NCBI GenBank assembly: GCA_963771275.1
Contig: CAVYSW010000003.1
Location: 1,120,001 to 1,184,000 of the forward strand
DNA from: an uncultured Gemmatimonadales bacterium
GTDB lineage: Bacteria > Gemmatimonadota > Gemmatimonadetes > Gemmatimonadales > GWC2-71-9
Reading direction: 5' to 3'
Length of the DNA stretch: 64,000 nucleotides
Part shown: positions 12,012 to 34,806 of the stretch, piece by piece
Numbering within the stretch: the first letter of the stretch is position 1
How the letters are laid out: each line of letters opens with the position of its first letter
Program-made: the position numbers and the translations under genes
The notes under the pieces: generated by a model
Database searches by the model: none
Told to the model about the DNA's origin: nothing
The model's input: only the letters and a program-made list of their open reading frames with translations

Positions 12012-12095
12012 AATCCCCAGTCTCTTAACGCGCGCCCGGGGTCGCCGCTGTGCCGCAGCGCACAGTTGGCGATCGGGGTGCGGTCTGGGGTCAGA

Positions 12096-12962: not shown

Positions 12963-13118
12963 GGGCGGGCTCACTGATGGAAGCGCTGTCACAAGATGAG
13001 CCAAACCGACCGGCGCGAGCAAGCGGCCGCCGGCCGGGCCCCATCGTCCGCCCTTCCATCGGCCACCGGGCGACCTATACTTCGAAACACGCCCCAGCGT
13101 TGAAAGGCCCATACCGTC

Positions 13119-14987
13119 ATGGCCTCCCCTATCGCCTCCCGCTCCGAGCGCGAGGTGCGCGACGCCGTCGTCATCCGGTTCGCCGGTGACTCCGGCGACG
13201 GCATGCAGCTCACCGGCCTGCAGTTCACGCAGGAGACCGCGCTGGCCGGCAGTGACCTCGCGACCTTCCCCGACTACCCGGCCGAGATCCGCGCGCCGGC
13301 CGGGACGACCTATGGCGTCTCGGCGTTCCAGATCCAGTTCGGCGCGCGCGACATCGCCACGGCGGGCGACGAGCTCGATGTCCTCGTCGCGATGAATCCG
13401 GCGGCGCTCAAGGTGGGGCTCGCCGACGTCCGCATGGGTGGCACCGTCGTCGCGGACACCGGCGCCTTCACCGAGCGCAATCTCCAGAAGGCTGGCTACA
13501 CGGCGAGCCCGTTCGACGACGAGGCGCTGGCGCCGTACCAGTTGCTGCGACTCGACATCACGCGCCACACCCTCGACGCCGTCGACGGCCTCGGCCTGTC
13601 CCAGAAGGAGGCGCTCCGCTGCCGCAACATGTGGGCGCTGGGGCTGATGCTCTGGATGTACGGCCGCTCCCGCAAGGCGACGCAGCAGTGGGTCGAGCGG
13701 AAGTTCGCCGCCGAGCCGCCGGTCCGTGACGCCAATCTGCGCGCGCTCAACGCGGGACACGCGTTCGGGGAGACGGCGGAGATGCCCTCGCACGTGGCCG
13801 GCTACTCCGTCGCGGCCGCACAGCTGCCGCCGGGCACCTATCGCACGGTGAGCGGAACGGAGGCGCTGGCCTGGGGGCTGGTGACTGGTCTCAAGGCCGC
13901 CGGCCTCGATCGCCTCGTGCTGGGCTCCTACCCGATTACCCCTGCCTCACCGTTGCTGCACACCATGGCGGGCTTCCAGGATTACGGGGTCGTCACGTTT
14001 CAGGCCGAGGACGAAATTGCCGCCGTGTGCGCCGCGATCGGAGCGTCGTATGCCGGAGCCCTCGGCGTCACCTCGAGCTCCGGTCCGGGAATCGCGCTCA
14101 AGACGGAGGCGATCGGGCTCGCAGTCGCCACCGAGCTCCCGCTGGTGATCGTGAATGCGCAGCGGGCGGGGCCGTCCACCGGCTTGCCGACCAAGACTGA
14201 GCAGGCCGACCTCCACCAGGCAGTCTTCGGTCGGAATGGCGACGCACAACTTGTAGTAGTTGCAACAGCAACTCCCTCTGATTCGTTCGAGGTCGCCATT
14301 GAGGCGGTTCGCATCGCCACCAAGTTCATGACACCGGTCATGTTGTTGACTGATGGGTTCTTAGCGAACGCCGCAGAGCCATGGCTCATCCCTGACGCCG
14401 ACGCGGTCGAACCGTTCCCCGTCCGGTTCCGGGAAGACCCCGACGGCTTTCGCCCGTTCGCCCGCGACGACCGGACGCTCGCCCGGCCGTGGGCACCCCC
14501 AGGCAGGCCGGGTCTCGAGCACCGGCTCGGCGGGCTCGAGCGCCACGCGACCACCGGCAACATCTCCTACGATCCGGACAACCATCAGTTGATGACGGAT
14601 CTCCGCCTCGAGAAGGTGCGGCGGGTCGCGGCCGATATTCCGCTGCAGCAGGTGGCGGTCGGCGAAACGACGGGCACCGTGGCCGTCGTGGGCTGGGGCT
14701 CGACGTTCGGGCCGATCCAGCAAGCCGTGCGCAATCTGCGAGAGCGCAACCTGTCGGTCTCGCACATTCATCTCCGCTATATCTGGCCGCTGCCGCGCAA
14801 CCTCGGCGACCTCCTCAAGCGCTTCGACCAGGTGCTGGTCCCCGAGATGAACGCGGGGCAGCTCCTCACGTTGCTCCGGAGCCAGTACCTCGTCCCGGCC
14901 GAGGGGATCAACAAGGTCACCGGCAAGCCGTTCAAGGTGGCGGAAATCGAGCAGACGGTGATGCGTCGTCTGGAGGGGCGATCATGA
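13119..14987 (+). CDS. korA: 2-oxoacid:ferredoxin oxidoreductase alpha subunit (KorA-like, gamma-alpha fusion), pair 1
   Basis: FAGDSGDGMQLTG, YPAEIRAPAGT, YPITPAS, QAEDEIAA, SSGPGIALK, RAGPSTGLPTK. Confidence 0.9.
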   Translation: MASPIASRSEREVRDAVVIRFAGDSGDGMQLTGLQFTQETALAGSDLATFPDYPAEIRAPAGTTYGVSAFQIQFGARDIATAGDELDVLVAMNPAALKVGLADVRMGGTVVADTGAFTERNLQKAGYTASPFDDEALAPYQLLRLDITRHTLDAVDGLGLSQKEALRCRNMWALGLMLWMYGRSRKATQQWVERKFAAEPPVRDANLRALNAGHAFGETAEMPSHVAGYSVAAAQLPPGTYRTVSGTEALAWGLVTGLKAAGLDRLVLGSYPITPASPLLHTMAGFQDYGVVTFQAEDEIAAVCAAIGASYAGALGVTSSSGPGIALKTEAIGLAVATELPLVIVNAQRAGPSTGLPTKTEQADLHQAVFGRNGDAQLVVVATATPSDSFEVAIEAVRIATKFMTPVMLLTDGFLANAAEPWLIPDADAVEPFPVRFREDPDGFRPFARDDRTLARPWAPPGRPGLEHRLGGLERHATTGNISYDPDNHQLMTDLRLEKVRRVAADIPLQQVAVGETTGTVAVVGWGSTFGPIQQAVRNLRERNLSVSHIHLRYIWPLPRNLGDLLKRFDQVLVPEMNAGQLLTLLRSQYLVPAEGINKVTGKPFKVAEIEQTVMRRLEGRS

Positions 14988-16003
14988 CAGCCACGACCGA
15001 GCTCCGCGCACAGCCCAGAGACTACGCGTCCGATCAGGAGGTCCGTTGGTGTCCGGGCTGCGGCGACTATGCGATTCTTAAGGGTGTGCAGAAGGCGTTG
15101 GCCGATCTCGGTGCCCGGCGGGAGCAGACGGTGTTCGTTTCAGGGATCGGCTGCGCGGCGCGCTTTCCATACTATGTGTCCGCGTACGGCTTCCACACGA
15201 TTCATGGACGCGCGCCCGCGATCGCGACTGGCATCAAGCTCGCGAACCCGGCGCTCGACGTCTGGGTCGTCACCGGAGACGGTGATGGCCTGTCGATCGG
15301 CGGGAACCACATGCTCCACGTGCTGCGCCGCAACGTGGACCTGCAGATTCTGCTGTTCAACAATGAGGTGTACGGCCTCACGAAGGGACAGTACTCGCCC
15401 ACGTCGCGCCGCGGCTTCCGATCGCCCTCCACGCCGCACGGCTCGGTCGACAACCCCATCGCACCCGGCGCCTTCGCGCTCGGGGTGGGGGCGCGCTTCG
15501 TCGCCCGCTCGGTGGATACGCTCACACCGCATCTCGTCGAGGTGCTGAAGCGTGCCCACGCGCATCACGGAGCGTCGTTTGTCGAGGTGTTTCAGAACTG
15601 CGTCGTGTTCAACGACGGAGCATTCGCCAGCTTCACGGAGCGGGCCGCGGCCGCGGACACTCAGCTGCACCTGGAGCATGGCAAGCCCATGGTGTTCGGC
15701 CGCGAGCGCACCCGCGGAATCCGCGTCAAGCCGGGCACGCTGCACCTCGAGGCCGTGACGCTCGGCGAAAATGGGGTGGGGATGTCCGACCTCCTGGTGC
15801 ACGACGAGACGGACCGGACGCTCGCGCAAATGATGGTCGACTTGCGGCCGCCGACTCTCCCCATGGCCCTCGGGGTGGTCTATTGCGACCCCGCACCGTC
15901 CTACGAGGATGAGGTCCTGGGCCGGTCTCGAGCGTGCGCCGTCAAGGCGTTGAATATCAATGAGTTGCTCAGGCATGGCCGAACCTGGACTATCGGGAGT
16001 TGA
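14984..16003 (+). CDS. korB: 2-oxoacid:ferredoxin oxidoreductase beta subunit, pair 1
   Basis: WCPGCGD, SGIGC, HTIHGRA, GDGDGLSIGGNH, NNEVYGLTKGQYSPT; ATGA overlap with the alpha gene. Confidence 0.9.
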   Translation: MTATTELRAQPRDYASDQEVRWCPGCGDYAILKGVQKALADLGARREQTVFVSGIGCAARFPYYVSAYGFHTIHGRAPAIATGIKLANPALDVWVVTGDGDGLSIGGNHMLHVLRRNVDLQILLFNNEVYGLTKGQYSPTSRRGFRSPSTPHGSVDNPIAPGAFALGVGARFVARSVDTLTPHLVEVLKRAHAHHGASFVEVFQNCVVFNDGAFASFTERAAAADTQLHLEHGKPMVFGRERTRGIRVKPGTLHLEAVTLGENGVGMSDLLVHDETDRTLAQMMVDLRPPTLPMALGVVYCDPAPSYEDEVLGRSRACAVKALNINELLRHGRTWTIGS

Positions 16004-16235
16004 GTTGTCGTCTTAAAGGTGTCTTCATGGAAAACTTCGGCGGTGGTTCCCGCATCGCCTTTACCATTAGGACGCTGTTCGCATAGGAGCGCCGTTACGA
16101 AACCGCGACCGTGGTCGCGTCATGCCGCGAGGGATCTGGGGGACAGTCACTGGCTGTCCCACTGCGCGGCGGACCGGGCCCGGTCGCGCTTCGTGGACGG
16201 CTGATGGGTTCCTGAACCTCAGCTCAGGTCTGCAC

Positions 16236-18143
16236 ATGGTCAGCCCTTCCCCCGTCGCGACGAAGAAGCCCAAGGCGCCCAAAGGCGCCCGGCCGGTCGT
16301 CCTCCGGGTTCCCGAGCATACCGTCGAGGTCGTCTCCGACTCCGGCGAAGGCGCGCAGAAATGCGGTCAGATCTTCGGGTCGGTCTCTGCCAAGATGGGC
16401 AACGGCGTGTGGACCGTGGAGATCATCCCCGCCGAGATCCAACCCCCCCCGCGGTCGGGCACGGGCGCCTCCGGCAACCTGATTCGGATCGGCACCAAGC
16501 CCGTCACCAACTGGGGTGACGCGGCGCATCTGGTGGTCGCGTTCAACGAGCAGGCTCTGGTCGCCCGACATCGGCTCGAGGCGCTGCACGACGATGCGAT
16601 CATCCTGGTCGAGAGCATGTGGGCGACCCACGACGACGAGGACATCCGGCGGCAGTGGGCCGAGGCGATGGACGAGCTTTCCCACCGGCGCTACACGATC
16701 ATCGGCGTGCCGATGGAGGAACAGACCCTGACCCTCACGGACAACCCGCGCCACGGGAAGAACATGTTCGTGCTGGGCATGCTCTCGTGGATCTACGACC
16801 GGGACCTCGACCTCACCCGTGACCTGATCCGCTACTCGTTCCGTCGCAAGGCGGCCGAGGTGGCGCAGCTCAACGTTGCGCTGTTGGAGCTGGGCTACCA
16901 ATGGGCCGGGGAGAATCTCGACTTCCGGATCGACGTCCCGGCGCAGAAGCCCGACAAGCCGATGATCGTAATGAACGGCAATCAGGCCCTCGCGATGGGA
17001 GCAGTGGCGTCGGGGATGGAGCTGTGTTCCATGTACCCGATCACGCCGGCGACGTCGGTTTCTCACTACCTGGGCGACATCTTCGAGGATTACGGCGGGA
17101 TCGTACACCAGGCGGAGGACGAGATCGCCGCCGCCGGCGTCGCAATCGGCGCCTCCTATGCCGGCAAGGTCGCGTTCACGGTGACGTCGGGTCCGGGCCT
17201 CGCGCTCAAGACCGAGTTCATCGGACTGGCCACCATGGTCGAAGTGCCGCTCGTGGTGCTCGACGTGCAGCGCGGCGGCCCGAGCACGGGGCTCCCCACC
17301 AAGGTCGAGCAGTCCGACCTGCTCGCCTCGGTCTTCGGCCAGCCCGGCGACGCGCCCAAGGTCGTCCTGGCGCCGGCCACGATCGAGGAGTGCTTCCACC
17401 TGGTGATCACCGCGCGGCGCGTTGCCGAGGCGCTGCGGTGCGTGGTCGTGGTGCTCACCGACGCCAACCTCGCGACCGGTGTGCAGCCGTTCTCGCGGCC
17501 CGAGGTGGACCCCCGTTGGATGTCGGTCCCACCGGATCTGAGCTCGGTCCCCGACGGCGTGAAGCCATACGACTGGGATCCGGAGCTGGGGCTCTCGCGC
17601 CGCTTCATTCCCGGCCAGCCGGGAGGCATGCACACCCTGACCGGGTTGTCGCATGATGAGGCCAGCCACGTCGCGTACGGCCCCGAGGAGCACGAGCGCG
17701 GCTGCGCCATGCGGAGCCGCAAGATCGCCGTCTTCCAGCAGACCCTGACGCCGCCCGAGATCTGCGGCGATCCCACGGGCGACCTGTTGGTCGTCGGCTG
17801 GGGCTCCACCAAGGGCGCCATCGACGAGGCGGTCGAACGGGCGCGGGCCCAGGGGCTCAAGGTCTCCTCGCTCCATCTCCGCGTGCTCTGGCCCCTGCCG
17901 TCGGGGCTCAAGGACATCTTCGCCGGGTTCCGCAAGGTCGCGACGATCGAGATCAACTACAGCGATCGGCTAGGCGACCCGCACATCACCCCGGAAAACC
18001 GGCGCATGGGGCAGCTGGCGTGGTTGCTCCGCGCGAACACCTTGGTGGACGTGGATTGCTGGACCCGCGTGCCGGGTCAGCCGCTCCGGCCCATCGGGAT
18101 TCTGGAGGGCATCCAGAGCATGATGCCCGGGAGGAAGGCGTGA
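16236..18143 (+). CDS. 2-oxoacid:ferredoxin oxidoreductase alpha subunit, pair 2 (divergent)
   Basis: SDSGEGAQKCG, MYPITPAT, QAEDEIAA, TSGPGLALK, QRGGPSTGLPTK; start estimated. Confidence 0.88.
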   Translation: MVSPSPVATKKPKAPKGARPVVLRVPEHTVEVVSDSGEGAQKCGQIFGSVSAKMGNGVWTVEIIPAEIQPPPRSGTGASGNLIRIGTKPVTNWGDAAHLVVAFNEQALVARHRLEALHDDAIILVESMWATHDDEDIRRQWAEAMDELSHRRYTIIGVPMEEQTLTLTDNPRHGKNMFVLGMLSWIYDRDLDLTRDLIRYSFRRKAAEVAQLNVALLELGYQWAGENLDFRIDVPAQKPDKPMIVMNGNQALAMGAVASGMELCSMYPITPATSVSHYLGDIFEDYGGIVHQAEDEIAAAGVAIGASYAGKVAFTVTSGPGLALKTEFIGLATMVEVPLVVLDVQRGGPSTGLPTKVEQSDLLASVFGQPGDAPKVVLAPATIEECFHLVITARRVAEALRCVVVVLTDANLATGVQPFSRPEVDPRWMSVPPDLSSVPDGVKPYDWDPELGLSRRFIPGQPGGMHTLTGLSHDEASHVAYGPEEHERGCAMRSRKIAVFQQTLTPPEICGDPTGDLLVVGWGSTKGAIDEAVERARAQGLKVSSLHLRVLWPLPSGLKDIFAGFRKVATIEINYSDRLGDPHITPENRRMGQLAWLLRANTLVDVDCWTRVPGQPLRPIGILEGIQSMMPGRKA

Positions 18144-19102
18144 TCCAGACTTCTTGCTCGTTCCTGACCTGCGGCCACGACGAGGACGACGACGAGCGCA
18201 GCTGGACGATGGAGGACTACGCCGGGGCGATTCCGCGCTGGTGCCCCGGGTGCGGCGACCACGCCATCCTCACGGCAGTGCAGCGCTTGCTCGAGGCCGA
18301 ACAGCTCCCTCCGGAAAAGACCGTGTTCGTGTCTGGGATCGGCTGCTCGAGTCGGTTTCCCCACTACCTCTCGACCTACGGGTTCCACGGCATCCACGGG
18401 CGGGCCCTGCCGATCGCGAGTGGGGTGAAGCTGCGGCGGCCCGACCTGGACGTGTTCGTCGTGATGGGGGACGGGGACTGCTGCTCGATCGGTGCCGGCC
18501 ACTGGATCCACGCGGTTCGGTACAACATGGACATGGTGGCACTCATGCTCGACAACGGCATGTACGGGCTCACCAAGAAGCAGACGTCGCCCACGACCCC
18601 GCAGGGGTACCCGAGCAACACGCAGCCCCGGGGAAGCCATCTCGTTCCGCTCAACCCGCTGACCGCCACGCTGGGCATGACCAACGCCTCGTTCGTGGCG
18701 CAGACGGCCGACTGGATGCCGGCGCACCTCTACGAGACCATCCGCGCGGCCTATCAGCACAAGGGCTTCTCGTTCGTCCGGATTCTGCAGCGCTGCCCGC
18801 AGTACACCAGCGATCTGTTCGAGCAGGCCGTCCGCAAGCCCGATCTGGTGGAGCTGCTGGTGCACGAGGACGGCGTGATGGCGCCCGAGCTCGAGCGGAT
18901 CTACAAGAACCGGCGGCGTCACGACCCCAAGGACCTCGACACGGCCCGTCACCTCGCCGAGGCCACCGCGCCGATCCGCCTCGGCGTGTTCTTCCGTGAT
19001 GAATCCAGACAACGCTACGAGGAGCTCCGCCGCCAGCGGGTGTACACGGCGCAGGAGAAGATCGAGCGTCTGAATCGGGAGTTCGACAAGTATGCCGTCT
19101 GA
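18140..19102 (+). CDS. 2-oxoacid:ferredoxin oxidoreductase beta subunit, pair 2
   Basis: GTGA overlap with alpha; WCPGCGDH, SGIGCSSRF, HGIHGRA, GDGDCCSIGAGH, DNGMYGLTKKQTSPT. Confidence 0.88.
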   Translation: MIQTSCSFLTCGHDEDDDERSWTMEDYAGAIPRWCPGCGDHAILTAVQRLLEAEQLPPEKTVFVSGIGCSSRFPHYLSTYGFHGIHGRALPIASGVKLRRPDLDVFVVMGDGDCCSIGAGHWIHAVRYNMDMVALMLDNGMYGLTKKQTSPTTPQGYPSNTQPRGSHLVPLNPLTATLGMTNASFVAQTADWMPAHLYETIRAAYQHKGFSFVRILQRCPQYTSDLFEQAVRKPDLVELLVHEDGVMAPELERIYKNRRRHDPKDLDTARHLAEATAPIRLGVFFRDESRQRYEELRRQRVYTAQEKIERLNREFDKYAV

Positions 19103-20090
19103 CGATCGCCAGCAGGTCGCGATGGCCGCCCTGGCCGGCCCCCGGAATCGGTACCGCTCGGTCCTGGCAACGACGCTGGGGGAGGTCCGCGCCCATCTCG
19201 ACCGTCATCAGATGGAGGCAGACGATCGTGTGTCCCAACTCGCCGCGGAGCTGGGCGACGTGGGAAGTCGCCTGGTGAATGTGAAGCGACTCGCCTCCGT
19301 GATGCTGGCGGAGCCGGCCGTCCAGCCGGCGACGCGGGAAGCCATGCGACGGGCCCTCGCGGTGCTCGAAGACCTCGCGGCGCGAAGCGACGAGGCGTTC
19401 GCGCTTGACCTGGCGCCCGGCGAGGGCCTGTATCAGGCTGCGGCCACGTTGTTGGGCGACTTCGGGCGGGCGATGGGCGCCGCCCGGGTGGTGGATGCCG
19501 CGCGGAGCGGACGCTATCGCCCGGCCGAGCATGACCGGTATCTCCGCGCCTTCCCGTTCGGGCAGTGGAGCCAGGCCGAACGCCTGCTCGGGCCGCCGAT
19601 CGTGATCGCGCTCGACGGTGCCGACCTCCGCCCGGCCGGCCTCGCCGAGTTCCTCGACGGGAACGTGAAGATCGTGCTGATCGCCCGGGGCGAAACCTCG
19701 CCGGCTCCGCTCGTCCGCCTGATCACGCCGCACGCGTTTGTCGCGCAGACGGACGATCCGGCGGTGATCGCGCGGCTCGGCAAGACCGACGGCCCGGGTG
19801 TCGTGGCGCTGATGCCGCCCCACAGCGCGCGCTTCGTGCACGATCCCGCGGCCGGCGCCGCACTCGGGCAGCGCCTCACCGTGGGCGAGGTCCCCTCGCT
19901 CGACGGCAAGCGGCGCTCCGGACCATTCACGGCGGCGCAGCAGCGCGAGGAGCTGGATCAGCTCAAGGCGTTGCAGGCGGCGGCCGCAGCCCCAACCGGC
20001 GGTCCGCTCGTGACCGGCACGGCGGGCACGGATCCGGTCGACAAGCTCGCGGCGTGGCTGCTCCAACAGGCGGACCTGTCGGGGGCGTGA
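19092..20090 (+). CDS. Hypothetical protein resembling a degenerate PFOR TPP-binding domain
   Basis: Overlaps the upstream beta gene and ends 1 nt before rnfB; aligns by eye with the downstream PFOR (see findings); contains no Cys. Confidence 0.75.
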   Translation: MPSDDRQQVAMAALAGPRNRYRSVLATTLGEVRAHLDRHQMEADDRVSQLAAELGDVGSRLVNVKRLASVMLAEPAVQPATREAMRRALAVLEDLAARSDEAFALDLAPGEGLYQAAATLLGDFGRAMGAARVVDAARSGRYRPAEHDRYLRAFPFGQWSQAERLLGPPIVIALDGADLRPAGLAEFLDGNVKIVLIARGETSPAPLVRLITPHAFVAQTDDPAVIARLGKTDGPGVVALMPPHSARFVHDPAAGAALGQRLTVGEVPSLDGKRRSGPFTAAQQREELDQLKALQAAAAAPTGGPLVTGTAGTDPVDKLAAWLLQQADLSGA

Positions 20091-20091
20091 C

Positions 20092-20949
20092 GTGCTGACC
20101 ACCTCGACCGTCCTCGTCTCCGGCGCGATCCTGGGCGGTGTCGGCACGTTCTTCGCCACCGTGATCGCGCTCGCCCGGAAGAAGCTCTACGTCTGGGAAG
20201 ACCCGCGCATCGACGTTCTGGCCGGGATGCTGCCGGGCGTGAACTGCGGAGCGTGCGGCCAGGCGGGGTGCCGCGCCTTTGCCGAGAGCCTCGTCCACGG
20301 GAAGATCCAGCCCGCGAATTGCACGGTCGCGACCGCCGACGCGCGTGCGGACATCGCCGGCTACCTCGGCGTCGATGTGGGCCAGGCGAGCACGCGCGTC
20401 GCGCGCTTGCTGTGCGCCGGCGGCTGCGACGTCGCGCCGTATCACGCGGACTACATCGGCTTGGAAACCTGCCGGGCGGCCGCGGCGGTGGCCGGTGGCG
20501 GCAAGAAATGCGCGTGGGGGTGCATCGGCCTCGCGGACTGCAAGGTCGCCTGCACGTTCGATGCGATCTACATGAACGACGAAGACCTGCCGGTGGTGAT
20601 CCCCGAGAAGTGCACCGCCTGCGGCGACTGCGTCGAGGCCTGCCCCAAAGACCTGTTCACGCTGATGCCGCTCGACCACAAGCTCATCGTGCAGTGCAAG
20701 AACCTGCTCGAGGGCGAGGAAGCCGATGCGGCATGCGCGGTGGCCTGCAACGGCTGTGGCCGGTGCGCGGCCGACGCGGCGCCAGGCCTTATCGAGATGA
20801 AGAACGGCCTCGCAGTCATCGACTACACCAAGTACGAACTGGCCTCGCCGGACGCCATCAAACGCTGTCCGACGGGCGCCATTGTCTGGGTCGAGGGCGC
20901 GCAGCAGTTCAAGGCGCGTCGTCCCCAGCTAGAGGGAGCGGCGGCATGA
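20092..20949 (+). CDS. rnfB: Rnf complex subunit B (membrane-anchored polyferredoxin)
   Basis: N-terminal TM, EDPRID..LPGVNCGACGQAGC, CIGLADCKVAC, CTACGDCVEACP. Confidence 0.9.
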   Translation: MLTTSTVLVSGAILGGVGTFFATVIALARKKLYVWEDPRIDVLAGMLPGVNCGACGQAGCRAFAESLVHGKIQPANCTVATADARADIAGYLGVDVGQASTRVARLLCAGGCDVAPYHADYIGLETCRAAAAVAGGGKKCAWGCIGLADCKVACTFDAIYMNDEDLPVVIPEKCTACGDCVEACPKDLFTLMPLDHKLIVQCKNLLEGEEADAACAVACNGCGRCAADAAPGLIEMKNGLAVIDYTKYELASPDAIKRCPTGAIVWVEGAQQFKARRPQLEGAAA

Positions 20950-23900: not shown

Positions 23901-26003
23901 ATCGGCGTGCTGTCCTCCCTGCTGCTCAAGCAGGGCAACTACCGCTCGATGGTGGGCGGCGACGGCGCGTGCATGGGTTGCGGCGAGAAGACGGTGCTGC
24001 ACCTGGTCGTGTCGGGCATCAACGCACTGATGCTCCCGCGGGTGCGCCGCCATGTCCAGCGGATCGATGAGTTGGTGACGCAACTCGACCAGAAGGCGCG
24101 CAAGCTGCTTGCCGCGGACGCTCCGCTCACGGAGGTCGGCAAGGCCGAGGGGACCAAGGTGGAAGTGCCGATCACTGCTGCCGACAAGGCGCACGTCGAT
24201 CGTATCGCGCGCATGATCGAGGAGCTCAAGGACCTCAAATGGCGCTACACGGAGGGGCCGGGTGGCAAGGGGCGTGCGACCACCGGCATCGCGAATGCCA
24301 CGGGCTGCTCCTCCGTGTGGGGGAGCACGTATCCGTACAACCCATATCCGTATCCGTGGGTGAACCACCTGTTCCAGGACGCGCCCTCGATCGCCATCGG
24401 GCTGTTCGAGGGGAACATGCGGAAGATGGCCGACGGGTTCGCGGCGGTGCGGCGGGGCCAGCTCGAGCTCGCGGACGAGTACGACCCCAAGACCCACGAG
24501 GGGTTCTTCGGCCGGTTCGACTGGCACCAGTTCACCGACGAGGAGATCGCGATGTGCCCGCCGATTCTCGCGATCGGCGGCGACGGGGCGATGCTCGACA
24601 TCGGCTTCCAGAACCTGTCGCGGCTGCTGGCGTCCGGGAAGCCGATTCGCGTGGTCGTGCTCGATACCCAGGTCTACTCCAACACGGGCGGCCAGGCGTG
24701 CACCAGCGGGTTCACGGGCCAGGTGAGCGACATGGCCGCCTGGGGCAAGGCGCAGCACGGCAAGACCGAGACCCGCAAGGAGCTTTCGCTCCTCTCGATC
24801 GCCCACCGCAACGTGTTCGTGCTCCAGTCGTCGCAGGCCGCCTCGTCGCACCTGCTGGCCGGCGTCCTGCGTGGGCTGCAGTCACGTTACCCGGCGGTCT
24901 TCGCGCTCAACTGCCCGTGCCCGCCGGAGCATGGTCTGGGCGACGACGCCGCGACTGACGCGGCGCGGCTCGCGCTCGAGAGCCGCGCGTACCCGATCCT
25001 CACGTACGACCCGGCCGCCGGCGAATCGCTGGCCGAACGGCTGAACCTCGACGGCAATCCGATGGTGGATGAGGTCTGGCCGACCTACGACCTCAAGTAC
25101 ATCGACGAGAGCGGCCAGGAGCAGGTGATGAGCCTTCCGGTCACGATCGCCGACTGGGCGGCCACCGAGGCGCGCTTCAAGAAGCACTTCACGCCGCTGT
25201 CCAGGGACGCGGCCGAAGACGACCTGCTGCGGTTCGACCGCTATCTCGCCGCGTCTCCCGAAGAGCGCGAGGGCAAGACGCCGTTCATCTACGTGCTCGA
25301 GGACGCGCGCCGTCTCGGCAAGCTCTCGGTCTCGCACGAGATCGTCGAGTTGGCGCGGGATCGTCTGGCGCTGTGGGCGCAGCTCAAGGAGATGGCCGGA
25401 CTTGAGATCTCGCCGTCGGTGCGCGCGTCGCTGGACAGCGACCTGGCGGCCAAGCTCGAGGAGCGGGCCGGCGCGCTCAAGATGGAGCACGACAGGACGC
25501 TCGCCGACCTCAAGGCGCGCTACCCGGCGCTCGTCGCCCGGCGGCTCGTCGAAGGATTGATTCGCGCCACCGGGGACGGCAAGGAGAGCATCGGCGACCT
25601 GCTGCGCCGCGTGCAGGAGATGCCGACCCTCGAGCCGCTCAAGGTGGAGGGCGACGGCGACGGGAACGGCCACGGCGCGGCCGTGACCGCCACTCCCGCC
25701 GCTCCCGCCGCCGCTGCCGCTCCGGTGGCGGTGGAGGAGGCGGAGGAAGGCCTGGCGCTGGAGCCCTACATCCAGACCGAGTTGTGCACCGCGTGCAACG
25801 AGTGCACGAACCTCAACAAGAAGATGTTCGCCTACAACGAGAAGAAGCAGGCGTACATCAAGGATCCGCGCGCTGGCACGTTCCGTGAGCTGGTGATGGC
25901 AGCCGAGAAATGTCCGGTATCCATCATTCACCCGGCCACGCCGTTGAATCCGAAGGAGAAGGACCTCGACAAGTGGGTGAAACGCGCCGCGCGGTTCAAC
26001 TGA
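20946..26003 (+). CDS. NifJ-type pyruvate:ferredoxin oxidoreductase, 1685 aa, with insertions and an extra C-terminal ferredoxin domain
   Basis: YPITPST, AARAMTKHAL, YGSEKKG, CTGCSQCWVQCP, CKGCNICVRACP, GACMGCGE, NATGCSSVWG, GGDGAMLDIG, DTQVYSNTGGQ; ATGA overlap with rnfB. Confidence 0.9.
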   Translation: MIRIRNKGGNGNGDDANGAKPKYPGTRTATDGSGAVVEMETAGSEGAGAYPITPSTQMGEGWAAAVAAGKLNVNGRSLIFFEPEGEHAAAAVTAGMSMTGLRATNFSSGQGIAYMHESLYAAVGKRLTYVLNVAARAMTKHALNVHAGHDDYHAVDDTGFFQLFAKNVQEGADLNLIAHRIAELSLNPGLVAQDGFLTSHVIETMLMPERALVKEYLGDPADIIESPTPAQRWVFGKERRRIPEMFNLDYPAMLGVVQNQDSYAQGVAAQRPFYFDHVQALADRAMAEYTALTGRAYARATGYRLDDAEYVLIGQGSVVPNCEAVCDYLRDARRLKIGVLNVTMFRPFPADLLTRMLRGKKAVTVLERTDQPLAVDLPMLREIRAAMYKALENGRAAGEVPYPGLTACQAAEMPDFYSGCFGLGSRDLQPADLIAAVDNMLEGGKQRRQFYLGIDFIRKDTRFPKLQIWQDELLEHYPHVADLSLHPGEPVNLLPKGATSIRIHSVGGWGAITTGKNLAQTAADLLGLYIQANPKYGSEKKGQPTTFYATLAHEPIKLNAELKHVTVVLSPDPNVFMHSNPLDGLEEGGVFIMQGDRPLAEIWHGLPATARRAIVEQRYEVYFLDGFKIASSEASDPELRYRMQGAAFMGAFFRAAPLCKQEGLDEQRLFEGIKKQLVKKFGHLGEKVVDDNVRVIRRGYDEVVRLDPAALAAEHEEVVGAVPQMPALLGGTNVQPGIGHGGRFWEQVCVLCKMGEDGIADPFAALSAIPAASSTIRDMTNVRFEVPEFIPDKCTGCSQCWVQCPDAAIPGVVSDIPEVLEAAVRMVEADHGRLDRVRQILKPLAAESRRLLKGVPFTTFADTLSTAFQNVVEKLNLDPERTAALDHEYAPVYAALVDFPLAKTAPFFDVVENKQKGTGGLLSITINPDACKGCNICVRACPDGALTTVRQTEEVVATLRRNWRLWQYLPETDDRYVNVANIDEGIGVLSSLLLKQGNYRSMVGGDGACMGCGEKTVLHLVVSGINALMLPRVRRHVQRIDELVTQLDQKARKLLAADAPLTEVGKAEGTKVEVPITAADKAHVDRIARMIEELKDLKWRYTEGPGGKGRATTGIANATGCSSVWGSTYPYNPYPYPWVNHLFQDAPSIAIGLFEGNMRKMADGFAAVRRGQLELADEYDPKTHEGFFGRFDWHQFTDEEIAMCPPILAIGGDGAMLDIGFQNLSRLLASGKPIRVVVLDTQVYSNTGGQACTSGFTGQVSDMAAWGKAQHGKTETRKELSLLSIAHRNVFVLQSSQAASSHLLAGVLRGLQSRYPAVFALNCPCPPEHGLGDDAATDAARLALESRAYPILTYDPAAGESLAERLNLDGNPMVDEVWPTYDLKYIDESGQEQVMSLPVTIADWAATEARFKKHFTPLSRDAAEDDLLRFDRYLAASPEEREGKTPFIYVLEDARRLGKLSVSHEIVELARDRLALWAQLKEMAGLEISPSVRASLDSDLAAKLEERAGALKMEHDRTLADLKARYPALVARRLVEGLIRATGDGKESIGDLLRRVQEMPTLEPLKVEGDGDGNGHGAAVTATPAAPAAAAAPVAVEEAEEGLALEPYIQTELCTACNECTNLNKKMFAYNEKKQAYIKDPRAGTFRELVMAAEKCPVSIIHPATPLNPKEKDLDKWVKRAARFN

Positions 26004-26010
26004 GGGCCGG

Positions 26011-27336
26011 ATGCTGAGCCAGATGACGTTCCGCCACGGCGTGCATCCGCCCGAGCTGAAACAGCTCACGGCGCACGTCAAGATCCGGCGGCTGCCGTTT
26101 CCGCAGGAAGTCGTGCTGCCCCTGCTGCAGCACACGGGCAAGCCGGCCAAGCCTCTGGTGAAAGCAGGCGCCCGGGTCGAGCGCGGTGATCTCATTGCCG
26201 AGGCGGACGGCTGGGTCTCCTCGCCGGTCCACGCCTCGGCCAGCGGCACGGTCGCCGAGATCGGGTTGATGCCCCACCCGGACGGGACGTTCAAGCCGGC
26301 AATCCGCATCGCGGTCGAGCCGTTCTCCGCGCAGATCCCGCGCCCGCGCCTCGTGCCGGATTGGGAGGGGCTGTCACCCAAGGAGCTGATCGAGGCAATC
26401 CGGCATGCCGGGGTGGTGGGGCTCGGCGGCGCGGCGTTTCCGACGCACGTGAAGCTCTCGCCCCCGCCCGACAAGAAGATCGACCGGATCATCATCAACG
26501 GCTGCGAGTGCGAGCCGTACCTGACGACTGACCACCGGTCGATGGCCGAGTATCCGGAGCGCGTGCACCTGGGCATCCGGATCATGATGAAATGTCTCGG
26601 GGTGAATCGGGCGGTGATCGGCATCGAGAAGAACAAGCCCGACGCGATCGAGGCCCTCAGCCGGACCATGCCGTCAGACCTCGACGTCCGGATTCTGCCG
26701 CTCACGGTGAAGTACCCGCAGGGCGCGGAGAAAATGCTGATCGACGCCGTGACCGGTCACGAGGTTCCGTCGGGCAAGCTCCCGATGGACGTGGGCGTAC
26801 TGGTGCAGAACGCGGCGTCCGCCGCGACGATCGCGGAAGTGTTCGAGACCGGTCAGCCGCTCGTCGAGCGCATCGTCACGGTGACGGGACTCGGCGTGCA
26901 CCGGCCGTCGAACCTCATCGTTCCCGTGGGCACGAAGCTCGGCGACCTGATCGACGCGTGCGGCGGGCTGACCGAGGACGCCCGCGAGATCGTGTTTGGC
27001 GGGCCGATGATGGGGGCCGCCCAGGCGAACCTCGCGACGCCGCTCACCAAAGGCACGACCGGGGTGATCGTCCTGGCCGAGGGAGAGGTGAAGCAGCAGG
27101 AATCCTACCCCTGCATTCACTGTGGGCATTGCCTCGAGGCGTGCCCGGTGTTTCTCAATCCACAGCTGCTCGGCCGGCTCGCGGCGGCGGGACGCTACGA
27201 CGAGATGCAGGCGAATCATCTGGCCGACTGCATGCTGTGCGGCTGCTGCTCGTACGCTTGTCCCTCCAATATCCCGCTGTCGCAGCAGTTCGTGGCCGCC
27301 CGGGTTGCGCTGCGCCAGCGGAAGACGGCGGCATGA
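26011..27336 (+). CDS. rnfC: Rnf complex subunit C
   Basis: HGVHPPELK, GVVGLGGAAFPTHVK, NGCECEPYLT, KYPQGAEK, GGPMMG, two CxxCxxCxxxCP motifs. Confidence 0.95.
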   Translation: MLSQMTFRHGVHPPELKQLTAHVKIRRLPFPQEVVLPLLQHTGKPAKPLVKAGARVERGDLIAEADGWVSSPVHASASGTVAEIGLMPHPDGTFKPAIRIAVEPFSAQIPRPRLVPDWEGLSPKELIEAIRHAGVVGLGGAAFPTHVKLSPPPDKKIDRIIINGCECEPYLTTDHRSMAEYPERVHLGIRIMMKCLGVNRAVIGIEKNKPDAIEALSRTMPSDLDVRILPLTVKYPQGAEKMLIDAVTGHEVPSGKLPMDVGVLVQNAASAATIAEVFETGQPLVERIVTVTGLGVHRPSNLIVPVGTKLGDLIDACGGLTEDAREIVFGGPMMGAAQANLATPLTKGTTGVIVLAEGEVKQQESYPCIHCGHCLEACPVFLNPQLLGRLAAAGRYDEMQANHLADCMLCGCCSYACPSNIPLSQQFVAARVALRQRKTAA

Positions 27337-28340
27337 GTCACTCCAGCTACCTGATCACGGCGTCTCCCCATCTCCGAAGCCCCGATTCCACGCCCAAAAT
27401 CATGTGGAGTGTGGTGGGGAGCCTCGTGCCGGTGATCGCCACGGCGACGTACCTGTTCGGGCCGAGCGCGGTGCTGGTGATCGCTGGCAGCACGGCCGGC
27501 GCCATGCTCACCGAGCGGCTGTTCGGCAAGCCCGGCGCCTGGCGCGACGGCTCGGCCATGATCACCGGACTGCTGCTCGGGCTGTGTCTGCCGGCGGGGA
27601 TGCCCCTGTGGATGCCCTTCCTGGGGGGCGTGTTCGGCATCGGCTTCGGCAAGCTGATCTTCGGCGGGCTGGGCCAGAACATCTTCAATCCCGCCCTGCT
27701 CGGACGCGCGTTTCTGCAGGCGGCGTTCCCTGTCGCGATCACGACCTGGCCGGCTATCGAGGGCGTCAAGTGGTGGTCGCTCCGCGGGGCGAATTTCGCG
27801 CTGCCGCTCATGAGTGGCGCGCAGGTCGATGCCGTCACCACGGCGACCCCGCTTGGCCTCATGAAATTCGAGCACACGGCGACCGCCGTGGGAGACCTCG
27901 CGTTCGGCAATGTGCCAGGCTCGCTCGGCGAGACCTCGGCGATCGTGATCCTGCTGTGCGGTGCCTACCTGGCGCTCCGCAACTACCTCAACTGGCGGAT
28001 CCCGGTGAGCATCCTGCTCACCGGGGCCGCGCTCAGCGGTGTGCTGCATCTGGTGAATGCGCAGTACCCAACCGCCGGGTTCATGCTGTTCTCCGGTGGG
28101 CTGATGCTGGGCGCCGTGTTCATGGCGACTGACATGGTGACCTCGCCCGTCACGAGTCTCGGCGCCTGGGTGTTCGGCGTCGGGGTCGGCCTGCTGGTGG
28201 TGGTGATCCGGATCTGGGGCGGGCTGCCCGAAGGTGTGATGTACGCCATTCTCATCATGAACGCGACCGTCCCCTCGATCAATCGGTTGACCCAGCCACG
28301 CGTCTTCGGTACGAGCCGGGCAAAGGCGGCCAGCCCATGA
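27333..28340 (+). CDS. rnfD: Rnf complex subunit D
   Basis: SPHLR, FGGLGQNIFNPALLGR, DAVTTATPL (FMN-Thr), GSLGETS, FMATDMVTSP. Confidence 0.93.
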   Translation: MSHSSYLITASPHLRSPDSTPKIMWSVVGSLVPVIATATYLFGPSAVLVIAGSTAGAMLTERLFGKPGAWRDGSAMITGLLLGLCLPAGMPLWMPFLGGVFGIGFGKLIFGGLGQNIFNPALLGRAFLQAAFPVAITTWPAIEGVKWWSLRGANFALPLMSGAQVDAVTTATPLGLMKFEHTATAVGDLAFGNVPGSLGETSAIVILLCGAYLALRNYLNWRIPVSILLTGAALSGVLHLVNAQYPTAGFMLFSGGLMLGAVFMATDMVTSPVTSLGAWVFGVGVGLLVVVIRIWGGLPEGVMYAILIMNATVPSINRLTQPRVFGTSRAKAASP

Positions 28341-29008
28341 CCGGCGGGCACGCGCACGCGGCGCCGCCGGCCGCGAGTCCCGCATCGGGCTCCACGGCCC
28401 GCAAGCTGATTCAGACCCTGGGCGGCCTGGGGCTCCTCGCCGGCCTCATCATCGTCGTCGCCTACGCCGTCACCCTGCCCCGCATCCAGGCGAACAAGGC
28501 CCGGGTGCTCGCGGCAGCCATCGACGAGGTGCTGGGCGCCCCAGCCCGCTACGACACGCTCTATGTGGTGCGGGACACGCTCAGCGCCACGCTGCCCGCC
28601 GGCGCGGATCCGGCGACCGCGGAGACGGTCTACCTCGGGTATCGCGCGGACAGCTCCGCGATCGGGTTCGCCGTGGTCGGCGAGGACCCCGGCTTCTCGG
28701 ACGTCGTGCGGCTGATCTTCGGCTACGACCCCCGCACGTCCAAGCTGCTGGGCATGAAGGTGTTGGAGGAGAAGGAGACGCCGGGCCTCGGCGACCGGAT
28801 CGAGAAGGACACCAGCTTCACCGGCGGATTCACCGACGCGGTGGCCCCCATCAAGGGCGTGAAGAAGGGGCAGGGCAAGCAGCCCAACGATGTCGACATG
28901 GTAACCGGGGCGACGATCTCGTCGCGCACGGTGATTCGCGCGATCAACAAGACTCTGGATCGGCTGAGGCCCGCCCTCGCCGCCCGCCTGCAGGAGGCCG
29001 CCCCGTGA
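28337..29008 (+). CDS. rnfG: Rnf complex subunit G (FMN-binding)
   Basis: N-terminal TM, ETPGLG, VDMVTGATISS flavinylation motif. Confidence 0.92.
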   Translation: MTGGHAHAAPPAASPASGSTARKLIQTLGGLGLLAGLIIVVAYAVTLPRIQANKARVLAAAIDEVLGAPARYDTLYVVRDTLSATLPAGADPATAETVYLGYRADSSAIGFAVVGEDPGFSDVVRLIFGYDPRTSKLLGMKVLEEKETPGLGDRIEKDTSFTGGFTDAVAPIKGVKKGQGKQPNDVDMVTGATISSRTVIRAINKTLDRLRPALAARLQEAAP

Positions 29009-29667
29009 GCCCGGCCAAGCCAACGACCGCAACGCAGGATTTCATGCGCTGCGTGTGGAAGGAGAACCCGACCCTGGTGCAGTTGCTGGGGATGTGTCCC
29101 ACGCTCGCGGTCACCAACTCCGTCGCCAACTGCCTGGGCATGGGCACCGCCACGATGTTCGTGCTCGTGGGCTCGAGCTTCCTCGTGTCGGTTGTGCGCA
29201 AGGTGGTGCCCAACGAGGTGCGCATCTCCGCCTACATGCTGATCATCGCGACCTTCGTGACCGTGGCGGACATGGCGCTCGCCGCGGTGGCGCCCGGGGT
29301 CCACAAGGCGCTCGGCGCCTTCGTCGCGCTGATCGTGGTGAACTGCATCATCCTGGGCCGCGCGGAGGCCTTTGCCTCCAAGAACCCGGTGGGGCGGTCC
29401 GTGCTCGACGCCATCGGCAACGGCATCGGATTCACCTGGATGATGCTGGTGATGGGCTCGGTCCGCGAGGTGCTGGGCAACGGGACGTGGCTGGGCATGC
29501 GGGTGTTCGGCCCCCACTTCGAGCCCTGGATCATCATGATCCTGCCGCCGGGCGGGTTTCTGACGCTCGGGACGATCCTCCTCATCGTCGGCGCCGCGAA
29601 GTACCACCAGGCCGAGCGGGCCAAGGCACGCGAGCTGTCGCTGGCGATCGCGCGCGAGGCGGCCTGA
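29005..29667 (+). CDS. rnfE: Rnf complex subunit E
   Basis: ENPTLVQLLGMCPTLAVT, LIVVNCIILGRAEAFA, LPPGGF. Confidence 0.93.
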   Translation: MSPAKPTTATQDFMRCVWKENPTLVQLLGMCPTLAVTNSVANCLGMGTATMFVLVGSSFLVSVVRKVVPNEVRISAYMLIIATFVTVADMALAAVAPGVHKALGAFVALIVVNCIILGRAEAFASKNPVGRSVLDAIGNGIGFTWMMLVMGSVREVLGNGTWLGMRVFGPHFEPWIIMILPPGGFLTLGTILLIVGAAKYHQAERAKARELSLAIAREAA

Positions 29668-30248
29668 TGGGAAACCTCCTCTGGATTCTCGTCTCGACCG
29701 CGCTGGTCAACAACTTCACCCTGATGATGTTCCTGGGGCTGTGCCCGTTCCTCGGCGTCTCGAACAAGATCGACAGCGGGTTCCGCATGGGCCTCGCCAA
29801 CACGTTCGTGCTGGTGATGACGTCCATCGCCGTGTGGGTGCTCAACACCTACATCCTCAGGGCGGCGCCCTATCTCCAGCTCATTTCGTTCATCGTCGTG
29901 ATCGCCTCGCTCGTGCAGATCGTCGAGATGGTGATCAAGAAGCTGAGCCCGGCCCTGTTCCGGGCGCTGGGGATCTACCTGCCGCTCATCACGACCAATT
30001 GCGCGATCCTGGGGCTCGCGATCTTCCAGACCAATCGCGGGTACTCGCTGGTGGAGGGCATCTTCTTCGCCATCGGCGGCGGTCTCGGACTCATGCTCGC
30101 GCTCGTGCTCATGGCCTCGATTCGGGAATCGCTCGAGCTGGCGGACGTCCCGAAGGCCGCCCGCACCATGGGCCTCATCATGATCCTCGCCGGCTCGCTC
30201 TCCCTCGCGTTCATGGGCTTCGCGGGGCTGTTCAGCGCCACGTCATGA
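29667..30248 (+). CDS. rnfA: Rnf complex subunit A
   Basis: VNNFTLMMFLGLCPFLGVS, LGIYLPLITTNCAILG, SLAFMGFAG; TGATG overlap. Confidence 0.93.
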   Translation: MGNLLWILVSTALVNNFTLMMFLGLCPFLGVSNKIDSGFRMGLANTFVLVMTSIAVWVLNTYILRAAPYLQLISFIVVIASLVQIVEMVIKKLSPALFRALGIYLPLITTNCAILGLAIFQTNRGYSLVEGIFFAIGGGLGLMLALVLMASIRESLELADVPKAARTMGLIMILAGSLSLAFMGFAGLFSATS

Positions 30249-30424
30249 TCCGTACCCTCATCGGCATCGCGGCCGTCGTCGCGCTCTTTCTGCTGTATGG
30301 CTGGTTGCAGTGGGGGCGGCCGCGCCATGGCTGCGGCAACTGCAGCTGTGGTGGCGACGTCTGCGAGCGCACCGGCGAGCCCCGCCATCTGGAACTCGTG
30401 GAGCACAAAGATGCCCGTTCCTGA
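30245..30424 (+). CDS. Small membrane-anchored Cys-rich protein (59 aa)
   Basis: ATGA overlap with rnfA; MIRTLIGIAAVVALFLLYGWLQW TM followed by GCGNCSCGGDVC. Confidence 0.7.
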   Translation: MIRTLIGIAAVVALFLLYGWLQWGRPRHGCGNCSCGGDVCERTGEPRHLELVEHKDARS

Positions 30425-31400
30425 AACCTCCGGGTCACTCCATCCCACGCGCCGGCAGTTCCTGGCGCTCGGCGTCGGCGCCTTCGTCGTCGGGACCGTT
30501 CCACTCGCGGGGCTCAGACGCCGCAGAGTGCGCCGCACGGTTCCGGTGATGGGGACCATCGCCGAGTTTGCGGTCGTGCACCGCAATCCGGTGTACGCCC
30601 ATGCCGCCATCGATGCCGCGATGGGCCGGCTGAATCTCGTGGAAACGCTGATGACGCGGTACAAGGACACCTCGGACATCGGCCGCGCGAACCTCGCCGG
30701 CAGGCGTGAGGCCGTCCACGTGACCGCGCAGACGGCGACGGTGCTGGCCGCTGCGCTGGGCTGGGCGGAATCCTCCGAGGGCGCGTTCGACCCCTGCATG
30801 GGATCGGCCATCGAGCTGTGGGATGTGGGACACCGACACCAGCCCCCGGCGGCGGACGCCGTGCGGCGTTTGGCGGGGCAGCGATTCTACCGCGACCTCG
30901 ACCTCGATCGCTGGCAAGGCCGTCCCGCGGCCCGGCTCACGGCGCGCGAGGCGCGGATCGACCTGGGCGGCATCGGTAAGGGCTACGGTGTGGATCAGGC
31001 CATCCAGATGCTCCGCGACTGGGGCATTCGCGACGCCATCGTGAACGTGGGCGGAGATCTCTACGCCATGGGGCGCTCCGAAGATGGCAACCCGTGGCGT
31101 ATTGGCGTGCGGTCACCGGCGAGCGCCACGGAGATGCTGGCGACGCTCGACGTCGAGGACCGGGCCGTCGCGACGTCCGGCGATTACCTGCAGTACTTCG
31201 AGTACCACGGGCGGCGCTACCATCACCTGCTTGACCCGGCCACCGCCGCCCCGCGCCTCTCCGCCATGCACAGCGTCACCGTCATGGCCGATGACTGCAT
31301 CACCGCGGACGCGGCCGCCACGGCGTGCTTCGGGCAGGACGTGGCGGCGAGCAACCGTTTGCTCACCAAGCGGTCGGCGCGTATCGTGCACCACGTGTAG
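30411..31400 (+). CDS. apbE: FAD:protein FMN transferase (ApbE) with Tat signal
   Basis: TRRQFL Tat motif, VMGT, GAFDP, DLGGIGKGYGVD, GGDL, ATSGDY, HHLLDP. Confidence 0.92.
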   Translation: MPVPETSGSLHPTRRQFLALGVGAFVVGTVPLAGLRRRRVRRTVPVMGTIAEFAVVHRNPVYAHAAIDAAMGRLNLVETLMTRYKDTSDIGRANLAGRREAVHVTAQTATVLAAALGWAESSEGAFDPCMGSAIELWDVGHRHQPPAADAVRRLAGQRFYRDLDLDRWQGRPAARLTAREARIDLGGIGKGYGVDQAIQMLRDWGIRDAIVNVGGDLYAMGRSEDGNPWRIGVRSPASATEMLATLDVEDRAVATSGDYLQYFEYHGRRYHHLLDPATAAPRLSAMHSVTVMADDCITADAAATACFGQDVAASNRLLTKRSARIVHHV

Positions 31401-31441
31401 GCTCCGCGGCAGCACGGTCCGGTCGCGCAGGGAGGCTCCCC

Positions 31442-32756: not shown

Positions 32757-34806
<2,050 letters not shown>

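Follow-up and report, generated by a model that had tools for sequence, protein, structure and literature searches.

Rnf and pyruvate:ferredoxin oxidoreductase (PFOR) are textbook enzymes of strict anaerobes and are thought to be linked through a pool of free ferredoxin; ferredoxin I of Desulfovibrio africanus is a physiological acceptor of that organism's PFOR. 2-Oxoacid dehydrogenase complexes use lipoyl domains as swinging-arm carriers on Ala/Pro-rich linkers. The Gemmatimonadota are common in soils and sediments and are mostly regarded as aerobic. In Chlorobi and Bacteroidetes, the rnf operon is ordered rnfBCDGEA, according to the available text of PMC4014512. Here we analyse 64,000 nt of contig CAVYSW010000003.1 from an uncultured Gemmatimonadales bacterium (the whole stretch is called the window), in which a 12-gene block on the plus strand (16236-31400) runs A2, B2, X, rnfB, giant PFOR, rnfC-D-G-E-A, Cys-rich peptide and apbE. 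A2 and B2 are the subunits of a KorAB-type oxidoreductase, X is a protein related to a PFOR domain, and the giant PFOR-like enzyme, encoded between rnfB and rnfC, ends in a ferredoxin of its own.

We consider it probable that this block encodes an integrated, ion-translocating 2-oxoacid:NAD+ oxidoreductase that uses a tethered ferredoxin. In the mechanism that we infer, the giant PFOR-like enzyme would oxidise a 2-oxoacid, most likely pyruvate, with coenzyme A at its thiamine pyrophosphate (TPP) site, and its three [4Fe-4S] clusters would relay the electrons to its C-terminal ferredoxin, swinging on a disordered, Ala/Pro-rich linker of 40-75 residues. The tethered ferredoxin would hand them to the polyferredoxin RnfB, and Rnf (RnfCDGEA, matured by ApbE and perhaps by the Cys-rich peptide) would reduce NAD+ and export Na+ or H+. 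A2B2, whose substrate is probably 2-oxoglutarate or a comparable acid, would feed the same electron sink.

A literature search, with subscription-only papers outside its coverage, found no description of a PFOR inside an rnf operon or of Rnf in Gemmatimonadota. The available text of a 2025 review of RNF and NQR mentions neither Gemmatimonadota nor an embedded PFOR (PMC12174285), and the strings 'Gemmatimon' and 'pyruvate' are both absent from the text of PMC4014512. An rnf operon with an embedded, ferredoxin-tethered PFOR is apparently an undescribed variant of two well-known systems.

The giant PFOR, its tethered ferredoxin and linkage to rnf

The giant PFOR has the domain order I-II-III-V-VI and the TPP motif GDG...SNTGGQ. 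Its best family matches are PFOR and PorA, ahead of other 2-oxoacid:ferredoxin oxidoreductase (OFOR) families, and among PDB chains it matched 6cin_A (Moorella; E 3.5e-87) and 1b0p (D. africanus; E 4.5e-82). In an alignment of 120 homologues, restricted to proteins of 1640-1730 aa, the Cys residues 794/797/800/804, 931/934/937/941 and 1009/1012/1121/1325 account for three [4Fe-4S] clusters; 11 of these 12 are invariant and C804 is present in 99% of sequences. The same alignment shows family-specific insertions of 123-125 aa in the ferredoxin-like domain V and, in helical form, of 68-80 aa in domain VI. The family is large, with 6650 database proteins at E <= 1e-20, and the names given to it there are generic only.

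The C-terminus of the enzyme comprises a helical extension, a disordered linker (residues ~1560-1605) and a single-[4Fe-4S] ferredoxin (~1606-1685). Pfam Fer4_13 matched this end at 28.1 bits (cut-off 24.5), and the ferredoxin ligands, Cys 1614, 1617, 1620 and 1656 in the pattern CxxCxxC...CP, are kept in 120/120 aligned homologues. Across these homologues the linker is 40-75 aa long (median 52) and consists of 31% Ala, 13% Pro, 10% Glu and 10% Gly. An AlphaFold2 (AF2) model of the last 300 residues folded the helical region with a predicted local distance difference test score (pLDDT) of 85-97 and the ferredoxin with a pLDDT of 81-85; pLDDT fell below 50 at ~1565-1610, coinciding with the linker. 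By sequence, the domain matched D. africanus ferredoxin I (1dax_A, E 5.9e-4), and its top Foldseek match was 1fxr_A (template-modelling score 0.66 on the target, 35% identity); further single-cluster ferredoxins are also among its best matches.

To survey gene order, we took one genome per species and found 635 stretches with a giant-PFOR relative, the best 80 of which gave 70 loci (61-83% identity), in which the window's proteins were sought by tblastn. Wherever 900 nt or more of upstream sequence is available (64 loci), rnfB immediately precedes PFOR, once with a 7-nt gene overlap; rnfC follows within 500 nt in 44 of the 47 loci with at least 1.4 kb downstream; and X stands upstream of rnfB in 57 of 58. 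Recurrence in dozens of species-level genomes puts the arrangement far outside what chance would give. The three remaining loci are split, with rnfC 6.8-9.8 kb further on (L021, 9405-17057; L035, 15085-21917; L058, 15147-24916). The gaps in L021 and L058 hold unrelated genes, namely a Ser/Thr kinase-PD40 protein, DUF2961, CHRD and opposite-strand DUF1552/DUF1592, and in all three loci rnfB stays with PFOR and not with rnfCDGEA. Locus L076 (G336:C4:408000-427900) carries A2-B2-X-rnfB-PFOR-rnfCDGEA-apbE in many frame-shifted pieces with in-frame TGA stops, which points either to decay of the operon or to an assembly rich in errors.

Among 401 sampled genomes of the phylum, giant PFOR was matched in 85 (44 of 147 genera) and RnfC in 90. 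Our own genome excluded, RnfC reaches 62% identity or more in 76 genomes, and all of these are among the 84 giant-PFOR positives. The remaining 13 RnfC-positive genomes belong to one deep family, f10 (13 of 13 sampled), have an RnfC of 43-46% identity and no giant PFOR, and the phylum therefore has two distinct Rnf lineages; the sole f10 locus inspected (L084, G011:C236) holds a plain rnfCDGEA set. Eight genomes were PFOR-positive without an RnfC match: five with a ~40%-identity paralogue only, one with a truncated orphan (G135) and two with contig-end fragments. In 'Candidatus Rokubacteria' (by record title; the phylum of G401), 5 of 121 genomes encode the full-length enzyme at 51-70% identity, and all five have the same cluster. 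Other homologues carry record titles of Acidobacteriota, Myxococcota, a 'Deltaproteobacteria' metagenome-assembled genome (MAG) and a Phycisphaera MAG, binnings that are known by title only. By record titles, then, at least two groups of phylum rank keep PFOR between rnfB and rnfC.

Presence of the fused ferredoxin goes together with rnf linkage: all 64 loci whose PFOR bears the ferredoxin are linked to rnf, and none of the five ferredoxin-less relatives examined (L073, L074, L075, L082 and L083) lies near rnf genes. This correspondence, together with the retention of the insertion inside the rnf set across at least two phylum-level groups, argues against plain co-regulation, in which the genes would share a redox pathway only, the fused ferredoxin would serve PFOR with any acceptor, and Rnf would draw on the free ferredoxin pool. 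Operons commonly group pathway partners without contact, the operon is split in some loci, and the genome encodes a homologous free ferredoxin outside the window (C3:1469972-1470181; 50% identity over 70 residues to the tethered domain), from which the fused domain may derive, or which may act as an alternative shuttle. All three points favour co-regulation alone, which we nevertheless hold to be decidedly improbable.

One of the five ferredoxin-less relatives, L083 (G135:C1:3923000-3942900), lies on a closed 4.7-Mb chromosome and is a lone giant PFOR of 62% identity that ends at about residue 1531. It is without linker or ferredoxin, rnf, A2, B2 and X were not found nearby, and it looks like a remnant after pump loss. 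The other four represent a sister family with open frames of ~1200-1620 aa and 35-48% identity. Their matches stop near residue 1434-1510, ahead of the linker and ferredoxin, and some Gemmatimonadota, as well as the phylum of G401, carry them as stand-alone genes.

These results bear on an earlier note, made from the window's sequence, which had proposed a membrane-docked assembly joining 2-oxoacid oxidation, or reductive carboxylation, to Rnf, had thought similar clusters in other genomes possible and had suggested a synteny survey of rnfB-PFOR-rnfC. The order proved strongly conserved, similar clusters occur in dozens of species-level genomes, and a functional link of the oxidoreductases to Rnf is borne out both by synteny (64/64, 44/47 and 57/58) and by co-occurrence (76/76). 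The note had also counted no free ferredoxin gene in the cluster. As far as separate genes go, this is true; a Fer4_13 domain nevertheless forms the end of PFOR. The note's idea that soluble ferredoxin may be bypassed gains from the tethered domain and loses from the free ferredoxin that the genome also encodes.

Protein X and docking on Rnf

Protein X had no match in NCBIfam, and any Pfam family that matched at E <= 1 did so in a single member out of 45. Its family comprises 643 cluster representatives, of which the 150 listed measure 325-457 aa (most 325-380), cover nearly the full X profile and have no evident fusion partner. In an AF2 model of X (pLDDT 90.2), a bundle of helices at the N-terminus is followed by an alpha/beta domain, and a floppy segment leads from there to a conserved C-terminal helix. 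The top Foldseek match of this model was PFOR 1b0p_A (E 6.5e-4), and the top match of an all-against-all structural aligner was 6cin_A 810-1170, that is, domain VI (Z 7.5, rmsd 10.5 over 204 residues, a borderline result). By hhalign, X 5-302 aligned onto giant PFOR 1019-1409, the family-specific helical insert included, with a score of 46.2 (E 2.2e-5); the reversed control scored 19.5 and eight column-shuffled controls 13.7-21.7. A protein search with X also matched the giant PFOR frame in G403 (X residues 128-188, E 7e-4). Kinship of X with KorB-type beta subunits was ruled out by comparison with B2 (score 22, probability 1.2%), and X is therefore kin to domain VI of the giant PFOR specifically.

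No cofactor site was retained. X is without the TPP motif, the GDG...SNTGGQ stretch being replaced by VDG.DL...VVRG, and it has no cluster Cys, the invariant columns of its alignment containing no Cys at all. On profile and fold comparison, X is a cofactor-less pseudo-domain derived from domain VI of the neighbouring PFOR, much as the earlier note had read it, and we propose that it acts as a structural accessory.

Such an accessory would suit a stable supercomplex, in which a PFOR dimer, A2B2 and X would be permanently docked on RnfB or RnfC with no diffusible carrier. X is scaffold-like and cofactor-less, ends in a conserved helix joined by a floppy linker, and is almost confined to this context (57/58 loci; no evident fusions among the 150 representatives listed). 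The gene order is near-invariant with overlapping junctions, and rnfB goes with PFOR in split operons, all of which is consistent with permanent docking. A long flexible tether, however, is expected where partners are not rigidly docked, and speaks for transient contact no less than for rigid docking. There is also a genome (L068) in which the cluster begins at rnfB, beside a divergent membrane-protein gene; its rnfB-PFOR-rnfCDGEA core is present and X was not found with the window's X as query. Complex prediction for RnfB 30-285 and B2 with X as partner scored 0.29 (mark, 0.32), and was counted neither for nor against docking. On balance we regard a stable supercomplex as possible and somewhat doubtful. 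Equally tentative is a megacomplex in which the OFORs dock on Rnf through RnfB and X and the ferredoxin is the swinging arm. This would be an NAD+-reducing, ion-pumping Fe-S analogue of the pyruvate and 2-oxoglutarate dehydrogenase complexes, spread horizontally among Gemmatimonadota and other soil and sediment phyla.

Operon layout and host physiology

Genes were identified from open reading frame calls, Pfam and NCBIfam searches, and inspection of start codons and junctions (Table 1). The window has a GC content of 64-72%, and its closest relatives are Gemmatimonadota genomes, by record titles. On the plus strand, korA1-korB1 is followed after a 232-nt gap by the 12-gene block, and all genes of the series start with ATG or GTG. 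From A2 to apbE, the junctions measure -4, -11, +1, -4, +7, -4, -4, -4, -1, -4 and -14 nt, and we take the block to be a single operon. Scans of 12000-31999 gave no sigma-70-like sites (1.1 expected) and four terminator-like hairpins (6.8 expected), both being uninformative for this phylum.

Table 1. Genes of the plus-strand series, from korA1 to apbE, with window coordinates
Gene	Product	Length (aa)	Coordinates	Strand	Evidence
korA1	2-oxoacid:acceptor oxidoreductase alpha subunit, fused gamma-alpha	622	13119-14987	+	TIGR03710, POR, POR_N, PFOR_II
korB1	beta (TPP-binding) subunit; 4-nt overlap with korA1	339	14984-16003	+	TPP_enzyme_C, E 3.6e-28
A2	alpha subunit of second KorAB-type oxidoreductase; first gene of block	635	16236-18143	+	TIGR03710
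B2	beta subunit of second oxidoreductase	320	18140-19102	+	TPP_enzyme_C, PFO_beta_C
X	degenerate copy of PFOR domain VI	332	19092-20090	+	profile and fold comparison
rnfB	membrane-anchored polyferredoxin subunit, ferredoxin-side entry module	285	20092-20949	+	Pfam FeS and Fer4
giant PFOR	PFOR-like 2-oxoacid:ferredoxin oxidoreductase	1685	20946-26003	+	POR_N, PFOR_II, POR, Fer4, TPP_enzyme_C, Fer4_13
rnfC	NAD(H)-binding, FMN and Fe-S subunit	441	26011-27336	+	TIGR01945, RnfC_N, Complex1_51K, SLBB
rnfD	membrane subunit	335	27333-28340	+	TIGR01946
rnfG	FMN-binding subunit	223	28337-29008	+	Pfam FMN_bind, 57.4 bits
rnfE	membrane subunit	220	29005-29667	+	TIGR01948
rnfA	membrane subunit	193	29667-30248	+	Pfam Rnf-Nqr, 178.9 bits
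Cys-rich peptide		59	30245-30424	+	translation
apbE	FAD:protein FMN transferase	329	30411-31400	+	Pfam ApbE, 249.7 bits

The gene order given in the earlier note is sound, every gene being present on the plus strand, as is its statement that junctions from 16236 to 31400 overlap or are at most 7 nt (measured, -14 to +7 nt). For apbE, a start at 30411 is more likely than one at 30297, because the 30297 frame overruns the mini-ORF of the Cys-rich peptide and apbE of relatives begins past the mini-ORF. The note had also placed korA1B1 in the series. The pair is present upstream; it stands 232 nt apart, and among ~37 relatives whose upstream flank reaches 8 kb or more, it adjoins the block in only three (L004, L007 and L016). 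We conclude that korA1B1 probably forms a unit of its own, ahead of the block.

Downstream of apbE on the same strand lies a short-chain dehydrogenase/reductase gene (31325-32158), for which a start at the GTG of 31325 would mean a 76-nt overlap with apbE; this gene, ending at 32158, was left out of the operon count, 31397 not being a start codon. Further on are thiC (33359-34672, minus strand), an H+-pyrophosphatase (34986-37511, minus strand) and a complete suf set (39716-45083, plus strand; sufB, C, D, S and U-like). The thiamine biosynthesis gene thiC and the suf genes, 3-14 kb downstream, are suggestive neighbours for TPP- and Fe-S-rich enzymes. At 1641-4245 (plus strand), a thiolase-like/acyl-carrier-protein-synthase-III-like pair is followed by a ChsH2-type OB-fold/zinc-ribbon protein; these genes are unrelated to the operon.

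All six Rnf subunit genes are present and clustered. Three exceed their NCBIfam cut-offs (rnfC, TIGR01945, 525.9 vs 245.95 bits; rnfD, TIGR01946, 297.2 vs 207.05; rnfE, TIGR01948, 238.6 vs 213.4), and three fall slightly below them (rnfA, TIGR01943, 222.8 vs 229.3; rnfG, TIGR01947, 97.4 vs 102; rnfB, TIGR01944, 58.9 vs 68.7), the latter passing Pfam Rnf-Nqr, FMN_bind and FeS, respectively. RnfB is of the long polyferredoxin type, and among solved chains it is closest to RnfB of Acetobacterium woodii (9eri_B, E 5.8e-56) and Clostridium tetanomorphum (7zc6_B, E 4.6e-49). RnfD and RnfG carry covalent FMN, for which ApbE is the maturation factor; the apbE gene comes after rnfA in most relatives with enough flank, and a second apbE-like gene lies on contig C5 of the same genome. 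In the 59-aa membrane peptide, a CGNCSCGG..C motif comes after a single hydrophobic helix; a homologue was detected by tblastn in L007. The peptide had no match in NCBIfam and a weak match to MauE alone in Pfam at E <= 1. NqrM matched it in neither search; the peptide resembles NqrM in architecture (helix plus Cys motif) and in its position by apbE only, NqrM standing beside apbE in nqr operons in the available text of PMC12174285.

Both KorAB-type alpha subunits pass TIGR03710 (cut-off 482.75), korA1 with 617.3 bits and A2 with 529.1 bits, and the two are 34% identical. Against TIGR02177 (cut-off 261.9), korB1 scored 252.8 bits and B2 236.7 bits, with TPP_enzyme_C passing its Pfam cut-off. 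The nearest solved chain is 6n2n_A for korA1 (E 1.4e-67) and A2 (E 5.1e-80) alike. In an alignment of 46 B2 sequences, mean column identity is 73% and the CPGCGD and GDGD motifs are invariant. A2 is kept upstream of B2-X-rnfB in relatives; in L032, an A2 fragment (7579-8098) stands alone before X and B2 was not detected, so that the KorAB-type pair appears partly deleted. A third OFOR pair is encoded elsewhere in the genome.

The host genome (3.86 Mb, 96.7% complete) has one rnf cluster, two haem-copper oxidase COX1 genes, one [NiFe]-hydrogenase-like gene, and sucA with three E1 alpha genes; an aceE-type E1 was not found in it. The host appears to be a facultative heterotroph whose conventional dehydrogenase complexes are supplemented by the OFOR-Rnf module. 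Since haem-copper oxidases and ordinary 2-oxoacid dehydrogenases are present, the module is most likely an energy-conserving alternative under oxygen scarcity. A role of Rnf in nitrogen fixation was considered and rejected: Fer4_NifH matched only P-loop stretches of 32-38 residues at 26 bits or less.

The same gene content raises the question of direction. Rnf is reversible, according to the available text of PMC12174285, and in reverse operation an ion gradient and NADH would reduce the tethered ferredoxin through Rnf, the OFORs then working as synthases of pyruvate and 2-oxoglutarate, whether to assimilate CO2 or for anaplerosis, in a host that is otherwise aerobic. The haem-copper oxidases could supply the gradient, and conventional dehydrogenases already cover the oxidative direction. 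The KorAB-type subunits are nearest to 6n2n, which we take to be a carboxylating enzyme of the reverse tricarboxylic acid cycle. Set against this, RuBisCO was not found in the genome, nor was a nitrogenase or any other evident process that would draw heavily on reduced ferredoxin. The ATP-citrate-lyase domain PF16114 gave no match either, a weak negative since the control was silent in all 14 genomes. OFORs are generally oxygen-sensitive, which fits anoxic use. We judge reverse operation to be unlikely.

Several observations weigh against an integrated 2-oxoacid:NAD+ oxidoreductase. The giant PFOR fails the TIGR02176 equivalog cut-off by far (400.3 vs 911.35 bits, with the match in three separate stretches), and its substrate is therefore uncertain. 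The free ferredoxin, 50% identical to the tethered domain, could be the real shuttle. Contact of the ferredoxin domain, or of any OFOR subunit, with RnfB is putative. Three of 47 loci have the operon interrupted between PFOR and rnfC, which means that assembly need not be co-translational, and the module is patchy within the phylum (85 of the 401 sampled genomes). Finally, the proximity of A2 and KorA1 to 6n2n is compatible with the reverse direction. Even so, functional coupling through the tethered ferredoxin has good support from comparative evidence, and we retain the integrated oxidoreductase, running oxidatively, as the probable reading.

Significance and comparison with known systems

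A large protein family here fuses the electron carrier to the enzyme and embeds the enzyme in the operon of a pump. If our reading is true, oxidation of pyruvate or 2-oxoglutarate would yield NADH and extra ion-motive force, which would explain the persistence of these bacteria under oxygen limitation. To our knowledge, ferredoxin docking on RnfB has been poorly resolved so far in Rnf structures, and the module would offer a natural self-contained system in which to study it. X is a clean case of a pseudo-enzyme domain born from a neighbouring gene. The present analysis adds the ancestry of X, the pairing of a missing ferredoxin domain with a lack of rnf linkage, and the retention of rnfB beside PFOR in split operons.

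With the Rnf of A. woodii (9eri) and C. tetanomorphum (7zc6), the window's system has all six subunits in common, its RnfB being nearest to those two; apbE is attached here. Unlike in either, a 5-kb PFOR-like gene lies between rnfB and rnfC, and a KorAB-type enzyme and X precede rnfB. Those organisms are anaerobes, whereas the host phylum here is largely aerobic and the genome has two COX1 genes. Once PFOR is removed, the order equals the rnfBCDGEA of Chlorobi and Bacteroidetes, as given in the available text of PMC4014512; unlike that order, the one here is interrupted after rnfB.

The homodimeric PFORs of Moorella thermoacetica (6cin) and D. africanus (1b0p) share the domain order, the TPP motif and the 12 cluster Cys residues. 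They are ~1170-1230 aa long compared with 1685 aa here, and the domain V and VI inserts, C-terminal extension, linker and ferredoxin are found here only. D. africanus ferredoxin I (1dax/1fxr) is free, whereas the matching domain here is covalently tethered to the enzyme. As in the KorAB-type enzymes (6n2n), A2/B2 and korA1/korB1 consist of a fused gamma-alpha plus a beta subunit, without a delta ferredoxin subunit; unlike those enzymes generally, A2B2 constantly precedes X and rnfB in related loci. The 2-oxoacid dehydrogenase complexes are alike by analogy only, in placing a small carrier on an Ala/Pro-rich linker of a 2-oxoacid-oxidising enzyme. Unlike a lipoyl swinging arm, the carrier here is an Fe-S ferredoxin, and its acceptor would be a membrane pump and not E3.

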